Shown here: positions 27,627-28,373 of the stretch, piece after piece
How positions within the stretch are numbered: position 1 is the first letter of the stretch
How the letters are laid out: each line of letters begins with the position of its first letter
Assembly: GCF_040363165.1 (NCBI RefSeq)
Contig: NZ_BSRG01000008.1
Span: forward strand, 36,141 to 68,140
DNA: 32,000 bases
Reading direction: 5' to 3'
DNA from: Thermus sp. LT1-2-5
GTDB lineage: Bacteria > Deinococcota > Deinococci > Deinococcales > Thermaceae
The notes under the pieces: model-generated
What the model was told of the DNA's origin: nothing
Databases searched by the model: none
What the model saw: only the letters and a program-made list of their open reading frames with translations
Translations under genes and position numbers: made by a program

Positions 27627-27925
27627 TGGCTCAAGTGATGGTGTTGGCGGTCAATGTGTTCCAGAAAAAGGACGGTGCGGCGGGGGCTCGGGTGGTGGTG
27701 GCGTCTACGCCTCGCAATCCGAACGTGCGGGGGTTGTTGCCGGTGGAGTTTGAGGCTCTGCCCGAGGTGGCAGATACCATGAAGGTTTTGCCGGGCATCT
27801 ATGACTTGGATGTTGAGCTTCCGGTGTCCTCGGGTTTCGGGCAACCAAATGGGGTGCGGCCCCTAGTGGTAGGGGCTCGGTTCGTGGCGGCGGTGGTGCC
27901 GGATAAGAAACATGCTCAGTCCTGA
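27626..27925 (+). CDS. Putative ssDNA-binding protein (gene V-like)
   Basis: 99 aa. The ATG overlaps the Rep stop (TGATG), and GGAGG lies 6 nt upstream. The protein is small and beta-rich and sits directly after Rep, as in Ff, Pf and other inoviruses. The assignment rests on position and size only. Confidence 0.55.
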   Translation: MAQVMVLAVNVFQKKDGAAGARVVVASTPRNPNVRGLLPVEFEALPEVADTMKVLPGIYDLDVELPVSSGFGQPNGVRPLVVGARFVAAVVPDKKHAQS

Positions 27926-28000
27926 GGAACTCCAGGAGGTTTTGAAGGCAGTCATGTTTGCGTTAGGGGTTATTGCCGGTGCCTTGCTGGGAGGTGAGTG

Positions 28001-28105
28001 GTGAACCCGGTGGTCTGGTTCGGGATGGTGTTGGCGTGGGTTGCGGTGCCGTATACGTTCCTGGCGGCGTACCGCTACACGGGGAGGTTGTATGGGAACC
28101 TGTAG
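28001..28105 (+). CDS. Candidate 34-aa hydrophobic virion-cap protein (pVII/pIX-like)
   Basis: The GTG start is preceded by GGGAGGTG, 6 nt upstream. My translation is MNPVVWFGMVLAWVAVPYTFLAAYRYTGRLYGNL, one TM helix with a basic/aromatic tail. Its size and position match Ff pVII/pIX (32-33 aa). It falls below the ORF-track cutoff. Confidence 0.35.
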   Translation: MNPVVWFGMVLAWVAVPYTFLAAYRYTGRLYGNL

Positions 28106-28373
28106 CGTGGAGGTTCTTGCGTGCGATATTTGCGGCGGGCAGGGGTTTACTGAGCGCAATCATCCGTGCTGGTGGTGTGATGGTGAGGGTTGGGTGGTGC
28201 GGCTGGAGTTTGAGGTGGATAAGCCGGATGGGGAAGGAGTGAGGTCTGAAGTATGGATCTCGGGCAAGTTTTTGCATCCTTCTGGTGGGGTGTTGGGGCG
28301 GGGTTGGTGGCTTCGTTCCTACGCAATACCCTCAAGCGGCTTTAGGGACAACCGGGGCGCTCTAGTCCCGTGA
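28092..28373 (+). CDS. Cys-rich protein with two CxxCxGxG (DnaJ-type zinc-finger) motifs
   Basis: 93 aa starting at the ATG at 28092, with GGGGAGG 5-11 nt upstream. The sequence is MGTCSVEVLACDICGGQGFTERNHPCWWCDGEGWVV... The paired CxxCxGxG motifs argue that this frame is real. The C-terminal third is less convincing and overlaps another candidate small ORF. Confidence 0.5.
   Translation: MGTCSVEVLACDICGGQGFTERNHPCWWCDGEGWVVRLEFEVDKPDGEGVRSEVWISGKFLHPSGGVLGRGWWLRSYAIPSSGFRDNRGALVP
28253..28345 (+). CDS. Candidate 30-aa hydrophobic small protein
   Basis: The ATG at 28253 is preceded by AAGGAGTGAGG, 8 nt upstream. My translation is MDLGQVFASFWWGVGAGLVASFLRNTLKRL, a TM helix with a basic tail. 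It overlaps the 3' part of the zinc-finger ORF in another frame, so at most one of the two readings applies over this stretch. Confidence 0.3.
   Translation: MDLGQVFASFWWGVGAGLVASFLRNTLKRL

Follow-up and report, generated by a model that had tools for sequence, protein, structure and literature searches.

Four small open reading frames between genes V and VIII of a Thermus prophage

The DNA analysed here, referred to as the window, is a stretch of 32,000 nucleotides (nt) from Thermus sp. LT1-2-5 (contig NZ_BSRG01000008.1, positions 36,141 to 68,140). Its part from 26.2 to 32 kb is an integrated filamentous phage, a Thomixvirus-like inovirus prophage, and the present study concerns the block of small open reading frames (ORFs) located between gene V, encoding the single-stranded DNA (ssDNA)-binding protein, and the coat gene VIII. 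An earlier reading made from the letters of the window without database searches, here called the sequence-only reading, had listed four candidate ORFs in this block, and all four were confirmed in the sequence. They lie on the forward strand. ORF1 (27912-28004) and ORF2 (28001-28105) encode hydrophobic products of 30 and 34 amino acids, ORF3 (28092-28373) is a 93-amino-acid zinc-finger ORF and ORF4 (28253-28345) encodes a predicted single-pass membrane peptide of 30 amino acids. An insertion of 145 nt (28108-28252) lies between ORF2 and ORF4. On the same strand, ORF4 is followed by a two-tier hairpin (28346-28379) and by the ribosome-binding site and probable start of gene VIII (28383-28400).

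A blastn comparison with phage genomes matched only the Thermus inoviruses Zuza8, phiOH16, phiOH3 and Zuza27, with approx. 70% DNA identity over the structural genes. The published Thomixvirus genomes compared were those of phiOH3 (NC_045425), phiOH16 (LC210520), Zuza8 (PP554188) and Zuza27 (PQ109074). The annotated order in these four phages is II, V, VII, IX, VIII, III, VI and a gene for a Zot-type ATPase, and the window maps alike, with ORF1 at the position of gene VII and ORF2 at that of gene IX. All four published genomes leave a gap of 220-252 nt between genes IX and VIII unannotated; ORF3 and ORF4 fall into this gap.

ORF4 is a conserved unannotated micro-gene

Relatives of ORF4 were collected by a motif search and then by a degenerate DNA pattern. 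ORF4 was present in all 35 Thermus-type loci, which comprise 4 phages, prophages in 4 other Thermaceae genomes, 3 IMG/VR contigs and 24 hot-spring metagenome contigs. Two more distant prophages from other Thermaceae genera also keep the arrangement V-VII-IX-ORF4-VIII. The sole broken copy was seen in an IMG/VR contig (L026, 3300005858_000015), in which a TGG codon at approx. 2053-2058 is replaced by TAG; prophage decay or a sequencing error could account for this stop.

The sequence-only reading had proposed to compare conservation and selection of each frame across relatives. This comparison revealed a coding pattern of substitution in ORF1, ORF2 and ORF4 (32-33 distinct sequences each). In ORF4, variation at the first, second and third codon positions amounted to 25/13/57 and the ratio of nonsynonymous to synonymous variation (pN/pS) was 0.25 (33 distinct sequences), lower than in either of the other two micro-genes. 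Read in the two alternative frames, these nucleotides gave pN/pS values of 1.3 and 3.6. Eleven residues were invariant, namely F10, W11, W12, G13, A16, G17, V19, A20, L23, R24 and L30. The peptide consists of an acidic N-terminus, the invariant FWWG motif, a Gly/Ala-rich hydrophobic helix of 18 residues and a basic C-terminus (LRNxLKRL, with three basic residues). By its distribution and its substitution pattern, ORF4 is a real and strongly selected core gene. The sequence-only reading had given it the least weight of the four ORFs, and it turned out to be the most conserved element of the block.

Where no insert is present, the ORF4 start overlaps or adjoins the gene IX stop. In L037, the ORF4 ATG overlaps the TGA of gene IX (TGATG), and in L006 and L008 the ATG lies within TATGG of the Leu-Tyr-Gly codons of gene IX.

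ORF4 is new in that it appears in no annotation of a published relative, while genes VII and IX were already known. None of the tblastn matches of ORF4 in five phage records was covered by an annotated feature, and no PHROG, Pfam or NCBIfam model matched the peptide. A profile search of 1.84 billion representative proteins returned only two true matches, gene calls of 70-73 amino acids from the same phage group, which represent ORF4 mis-extended upstream. Four other profile matches were rejected as translations of low-complexity repeats; the two that were inspected repeat a VYQAFRWWGVGT unit. A relationship of ORF4 to genes VII, IX, VIII or VI as a paralogue was likewise rejected, none being detectable by alignment.

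ORF3 carries a zinc-ribbon sequence on a lineage-specific insert

As the sequence-only reading had stated, ORF3 contains two CxxCxGxG motifs. Both are exact (CDICGGQG and CWWCDGEG) and 7 residues apart. Residues 1-54 make up the zinc-ribbon domain, and residues 55-93 are a basic tail that runs in the +1 frame across ORF4 into the hairpin. The ATG at 28092 is located inside the last codons of gene IX and is preceded by GGAGG with a 4-nt spacer.

The closest relative of the window, L037, is approx. 80% identical and forms its sister (100/100 support), and it is without the zinc finger. Pairwise alignment of the two displayed a clean indel of 145 nt, placed after the stop of gene IX and before the start of ORF4, with edges that are ambiguous by a few nt. 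The insert holds the zinc-ribbon coding sequence together with a new ribosome-binding site for ORF4. At the same junction, the G066 locus carries another double-CxxCxGxG ORF of unrelated sequence, OH3, OH16 and Zuza27 carry a 25-residue CxxC...CxxCGG ribbon, and Zuza8 carries CxC...CxxCSGSG; other lineages have nothing or a spacer of 28-34 nt. The window ribbon with its two full CxxCxGxG motifs belongs to a different and longer class than the four-Cys ORFs of the four published phages. Four cysteines are retained in all insert classes, four of which are very divergent, and every class has an ATG that either overlaps the stop codon of gene IX or is preceded by GGAGG. The position on a lineage-specific insert agrees with the earlier remark that such a zinc finger is not a standard inovirus component.

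Comparison of the OH3-type and Zuza27 ribbons gave a pN/pS of 0.17 in their own frame, with synonymous changes in Cys codons, and values of 2.3 and 0.8 in the other frames. For the window insert, the GC content at codon positions 1/2/3 of the non-overlapping part of ORF3 was 69/46/60, which is the pattern of the phage's genes and was absent from the other frames. The CxxCGG[ED] codons of OH3 and Zuza27 (TGTGGGGGTGA; L002 3040-3060) double as the ribosome-binding site of ORF4.

The sequence-only reading had named relatives with a broken zinc-finger frame and otherwise preserved frames as evidence against the ORF, and such relatives were found in part. In L023 (approx. position 1885), a 4-nt deletion removes the third cysteine and shifts the zinc-ribbon frame, which could be prophage decay or a sequencing error. 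Moreover, the ribbon is lost from a whole clade of 17 sequences with a 34-nt gap that is nested inside a ribbon-bearing clade. ORF4 is intact in these cases. In total, zinc-ribbon ORFs were lost at least two times. Judged from codon-level constraint and from this pattern of loss, the N-terminal zinc-ribbon segment of ORF3 is genuinely coding, though dispensable.

With its CxxCxGxG knuckles paired over a short hairpin, ORF3 is like the cysteine-rich domain of DnaJ and Bacillus anti-TRAP, and its spacing resembles that of one DnaJ zinc centre. DnaJ, however, has four CxxCxGxG repeats and two zinc centres in a J-domain protein, whereas ORF3 has two repeats in 93 amino acids and neither a J domain nor the C-terminal domains. 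The DnaJ_CXXCXGXG model PF00684 scored 16.0 bits with full-length ORF3 and 20.7 bits with the 54-residue domain, both below the gathering score of 32.7. Scores of the anti-TRAP models were also below their cut-offs (PF15777, 10.6-14.9 bits with a cut-off of 32; NF058604 RtpA, 13.2 bits with a cut-off of 65). By these model scores, ORF3 carries the CxxCxGxG motif and is not a member of the DnaJ or anti-TRAP family.

A word-index search of protein databases found no homologue of the 93-amino-acid ORF3, and ten peptide variants had no exact match among 15 billion proteins. In 68 Thermaceae genomes, a search with the zinc domain returned only DnaJ and unrelated host zinc-finger and membrane proteins. 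The single match in IMG/VR was rejected as spurious, and matches of 32 nt to an unrelated host gene, seen in three genomes from another genus of the Thermaceae, were attributed to chance. Two Thermaceae chromosomes (G015 and G058; L055 1291-1683 and L066 1363-1698) encode small proteins, not close to ORF3, that combine four CxxCxGxG motifs with a membrane helix at the C-terminus.

Overlap of ORF3 and ORF4

All five insert classes (window, Zuza8, OH3/OH16, Zuza27 and G066) share one frame relation, with ORF4 in the -1 frame of ORF3 and ORF3 accordingly in the +1 frame of ORF4. The sequence-only reading had offered a choice between overlapping genes and a spurious frame. The answer differed along the ORFs, as the selection on ORF4 and the coding character of the N-terminal part of ORF3 were both borne out and selection on the amino acids of the ORF3 tail was not. 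In the tail frame, variation falls on the second codon position and pN/pS is 1.3. Synonymous divergence of ORF4 was 0.617 in ribbon-bearing and 0.646 in ribbon-less sequences, compared with 0.605 and 0.673 for the non-overlapped gene VII. The synonymous rate in ORF4 is thus equal with and without the zinc-finger ORF, and the tail therefore adds no sequence constraint. According to these substitution data, the overlapping tail of ORF3 is under no amino-acid selection.

None of the 33 distinct Thermus-type ORF4 sequences contains a stop codon in the +1 frame, while synonymous resampling with phage codon usage predicted stops in 58%. The same resampling reproduced the observed values for genes VII, IX and VIII and for the +2 frame of ORF4. 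With 7-12 lineages taken as independent, the probability of this depletion was approx. 3e-4 to 0.03, the upper value being obtained when one Leu codon that is always CTY was held fixed.

ORF1 and ORF2 correspond to genes VII and IX

The claim of the sequence-only reading that ORF1 and ORF2 fit the slot and size of pVII and pIX of Ff phages held up well. Both are annotated as VII and IX in OH3, OH16, Zuza8 and Zuza27, and they matched phrog_35129 (E=5.6e-6) and phrog_38437 (E=3.2e-13), respectively. Their pN/pS values were 0.36 and 0.41, with variation mostly at the third codon position (32 distinct related sequences). The TGA of ORF1 shares bases with the GTG start of ORF2 (GTGA), which is preceded by GGAGGTGA. 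No Pfam model matched ORF1 at E<=1. Its FALGVIAG segment aligned with FALGIIAG of M13 pVII with a local score of 38 that was reached by none of 2000 shuffles, and on this alignment ORF1 is a pVII homologue and a putative minor coat protein. Comparison of Thermus gene IX with M13 pIX gave a shuffle p of 0.51 and that of ORF4 with M13 pIX a p of 0.21, so that the agreement is one of position and size only.

Like genes VII and IX of the Ff phages M13, f1 and fd, the Thermus genes occupy the slot between V and VIII, encode 30-34 amino acids and are coupled by overlapping stop and start codons. The Ff phages have two micro-genes in this place, whereas three are conserved in the Thermus phages. Furthermore, genes IX and VIII of M13 overlap directly, whereas in Thermus the block is set apart from gene VIII by a hairpin, to which some lineages add an extra ORF.

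The codons for the C-terminal GGEW of gene VII (GGAGGTGAGTGG) double as the ribosome-binding site of gene IX. They belong to the conserved GG[DE]W end of pVII (GGAGGTGA.TGG, 27990-28004). Outside the Thermus phages, orf30 of Pf1 (PfsE; L071 452-544) bears a weak resemblance to M13 and Thermus pVII (FAxGxxxG; p=0.06), which suggests that PfsE may be the Pf counterpart of pVII.

A covarying hairpin precedes the start of gene VIII

The hairpin follows directly after the ORF4 stop, and AGAAAGGAGGTGA, which is the gene VIII ribosome-binding site, lies just beyond its end. Its outer stem pairs 28346-49 with 28376-79 and its inner stem 28353-58 with 28365-70. In a comparison of 19 distinct sequences, 98.4% of cells were paired, and compensatory changes occurred in four of the ten pairs (for example GGAC/GTCC, GAGC/GCTC and GCAC/GTGC). 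None of 500 shuffles reached the covariation score, and controls with slid positions were paired to 24-61%. Minimum-free-energy folding gave the same hairpin. As it is not followed by a T-run, the structure is not an intrinsic terminator; it may stabilise the coat-gene mRNA or mark a site of its processing.

The ribosome-binding site of gene VIII (AAGGAGGTGA, 28383-28392) is invariant or nearly so in all relatives. The true start of gene VIII, which ends at 28622, is most likely the GTG at 28398 and not position 28389 of the longest ORF, as judged from the alignment, in which several relatives have an ATG at the position of 28398. A precursor that starts at this GTG would have 74 amino acids and contain AFAQA as a motif for signal-peptide cleavage, whereas a signal peptide is missing in OH3 and OH16.

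Neighbouring genes and related prophages

Upstream of the block, gene V (27626-27925, forward strand) aligned with the annotated gene V of Zuza8, OH16 and Zuza27 with 56-62% identity, and it shares its last 14 nt with the beginning of gene VII. Downstream of gene VIII follow gene III (28625-30202), gene VI (30444-30878) and a Zot-like gene (30930-31883). A promoter scan, a terminator scan and an Rfam search over 27500-28800 gave nothing relevant, and scans of genome contigs with the gene V profile and the ORF4 DNA pattern gave no match. One complete Thermus genome carries two copies of a related prophage (L007 and L015; G043:C1, approx. 834.3-834.7 kb and 1493.3-1493.8 kb) with identical match scores.

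Discussion

We consider it probable that the region is the small-protein block of a Thomixvirus-type phage, in which ORF4 is a core gene and the zinc ribbon an accessory carried on an insert. The ancestral layout would have been V, VII, IX, ORF4, hairpin and VIII, with three translationally coupled micro-genes. The ORF4 product is predicted to reside in the inner membrane with its N-terminus outside and its basic C-terminus inside, and it would be made together with pVII and pIX. Inovirus coat proteins share the layout of an acidic N-terminus, a hydrophobic helix and a basic C-terminus, and their basic ends face the DNA. ORF4 most likely encodes a third small virion-tip or assembly membrane protein. 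In the window, the 145-nt insert would have entered downstream of the gene IX stop, ahead of the body of ORF4. It would borrow the ribosome-binding site and the ATG at the end of gene IX for a new ORF encoding a small cytoplasmic zinc-binding domain, in which the two CxxCxGxG knuckles are expected to form one zinc site, and it would provide ORF4 with its own new start signal. As the length of the insert is not a multiple of three, the zinc-ribbon ORF crosses ORF4 in the +1 frame and reaches its stop within the hairpin. The sequence of the ORF3 tail would accordingly be a by-product of ORF4. The zinc-ribbon domain itself is probably an accessory modulator that binds protein or nucleic acid.

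Several observations weigh against this interpretation. In a proteomic study of OH3 virions with a six-frame search, the only significant match was ORF6 (pIII), the coat protein ORF5 remained below significance and no small protein was detected (PMC4763002). The zinc-finger sequence of the window is a singleton, and the selection figure comes from the OH3-type ribbon. As the ribbon is frameshifted in L023 and deleted in the 17-sequence clade, the window copy could be decaying too. An AlphaFold2 single-sequence model of ORF3 was uninformative (mean pLDDT 41). Finally, the resemblance between ORF4 and the C-terminal end of Pf1 orf83 (VASFLRN and VASLLRK; GLVASFLRNTLKRL and GWVASLLRKAK), which speaks for the interpretation in that only 0.9% of shuffles matched it in score, is weak once six comparisons are allowed for.

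This Pf1 gene (L071 557-808, p=0.009) corresponds in position to PA0722 of Pf4 and, like ORF4, is a small gene just upstream of the coat gene; with 83 amino acids and a long N-terminal part it is unlike the 30-residue ORF4. Its neighbour orf30, the PfsE homologue, leads to a different view of ORF4, namely that the peptide is absent from the virion and acts as an inner-membrane effector. PfsE (PA0721) of the Pseudomonas phage Pf4 is a 30-residue peptide with an aromatic YxWGW motif that binds PilC, blocks type IV pili and prevents superinfection. ORF4 has the same length of 30 amino acids, an invariant aromatic FWWG motif comparable to the WG motif of orf30, and the same neighbourhood between the ssDNA-binding gene and the coat gene. 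However, ORF4 aligned with orf30 no better than shuffles did (p=0.14), and, by sequence as well as by position, Thermus gene VII is the closer match to orf30 and also to M13 pVII. The basic C-terminus of ORF4 is typical of DNA-contacting coat proteins and is lacking in PfsE. Moreover, ORF4 occurs universally, is tightly coupled to genes VII and IX and is under stronger constraint than either of them, and we regard an effector role as distinctly unlikely.

For ORF3, the insert might be a remnant of captured coding DNA that is no longer expressed and now serves as a spacer with the ORF4 ribosome-binding site. The absence of the ORF from most relatives including the sister L037, its frameshift in L023 and its deletion in the 34-nt-gap clade would fit this possibility, as would the missing homologue in protein databases. 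Part of the conservation could be explained by the second-knuckle GG[ED] codons of OH3 and Zuza27, which constitute the ORF4 ribosome-binding site. A lack of expression fits poorly with the pN/pS of 0.17 and the synonymous Cys-codon changes of the OH3-type ribbon, with four cysteines kept in four divergent classes, with an ATG in each class that is coupled to the gene IX stop or placed after GGAGG, and with a codon-position composition that fits the zinc-finger frame. An unexpressed ORF3 is unlikely on balance. Far less probable still is a programmed -1 frameshift joining zinc ribbon and ORF4 into one protein, although the frame relation is shared by every one of the five insert classes. The window and the four phages each have a stop codon in the frame of ORF4, one codon upstream of its start, so that a shift would be possible only inside ORF4, and a conserved slippery site of the type X XXY YYZ is missing; on these two grounds the fusion was rejected. 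In addition, ORF4 has its own start and ribosome-binding site, and a fusion would put a cytoplasm-folding zinc domain on the predicted periplasmic side.

The open +1 frame allows a further explanation, in which a conserved overlapping gene extends from the gene IX stop to the gene VIII start. The act of translation would matter more than the sequence, as it would unfold the hairpin and hand ribosomes over from gene IX to the coat gene, and the zinc ribbon would be a lineage-specific N-terminal addition. This idea is attractive in view of the missing +1 stops in 33 ORF4 sequences, where 58% were expected, and of the ATG overlapping or adjoining the gene IX stop, which opens the frame even in the ribbon-less L006, L007 and L008 and in the 34-nt-gap clade. 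For most lineages, the TGA in GGAGGTGAGTGA terminates the frame 1-4 nt upstream of the start of gene VIII, and the 34-nt spacer varies mainly at third positions of the +1 frame (4/3/7). On the other hand, L037 has no start codon in the frame, a stop interrupts it in the more distant prophage G002, and both the window and L008 end it early. Gene VIII is equipped with a very strong ribosome-binding site of its own, and the TGA in GTGAGTGA is met by two of the three frames by construction. Much of the stop depletion is due to one Leu codon (L27), which is CTY even in lineages without risk of a stop, suggesting a different constraint. We therefore hold this explanation to be rather doubtful. Its fullest form receives slightly less credence: here the +1 ORF would be kept open across ORF4 and the hairpin so that ribosomes are released at the coat-gene start, it would serve as a landing pad where lineages gained and lost zinc ribbons, and it would be a gene selected for being translated and not for its product.

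A core micro-gene ORF4 accompanied by an accessory zinc ribbon stays within known inovirus biology; it is a finding on annotation and evolution and not a new kind of system. Thermus filamentous phages such as PH75 and OH3 are heat-stable models of inovirus capsid structure and candidates for phage display at high temperature. Published maps of Thermus phages list eight or nine genes, and a gap of approx. 220-250 nt in them holds the most conserved micro-gene of the structural block. For these phages, virion-cap models, assembly models and minimal-genome models would be incomplete without ORF4. The variable zinc-ribbon ORF across ORF4 would provide a compact natural example of a new gene that is grafted on an existing start and overprints its neighbour. 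Furthermore, the stop-free +1 frame and the covarying hairpin offer testable handles on how thousands of coat proteins and few tip proteins may be made from one operon.

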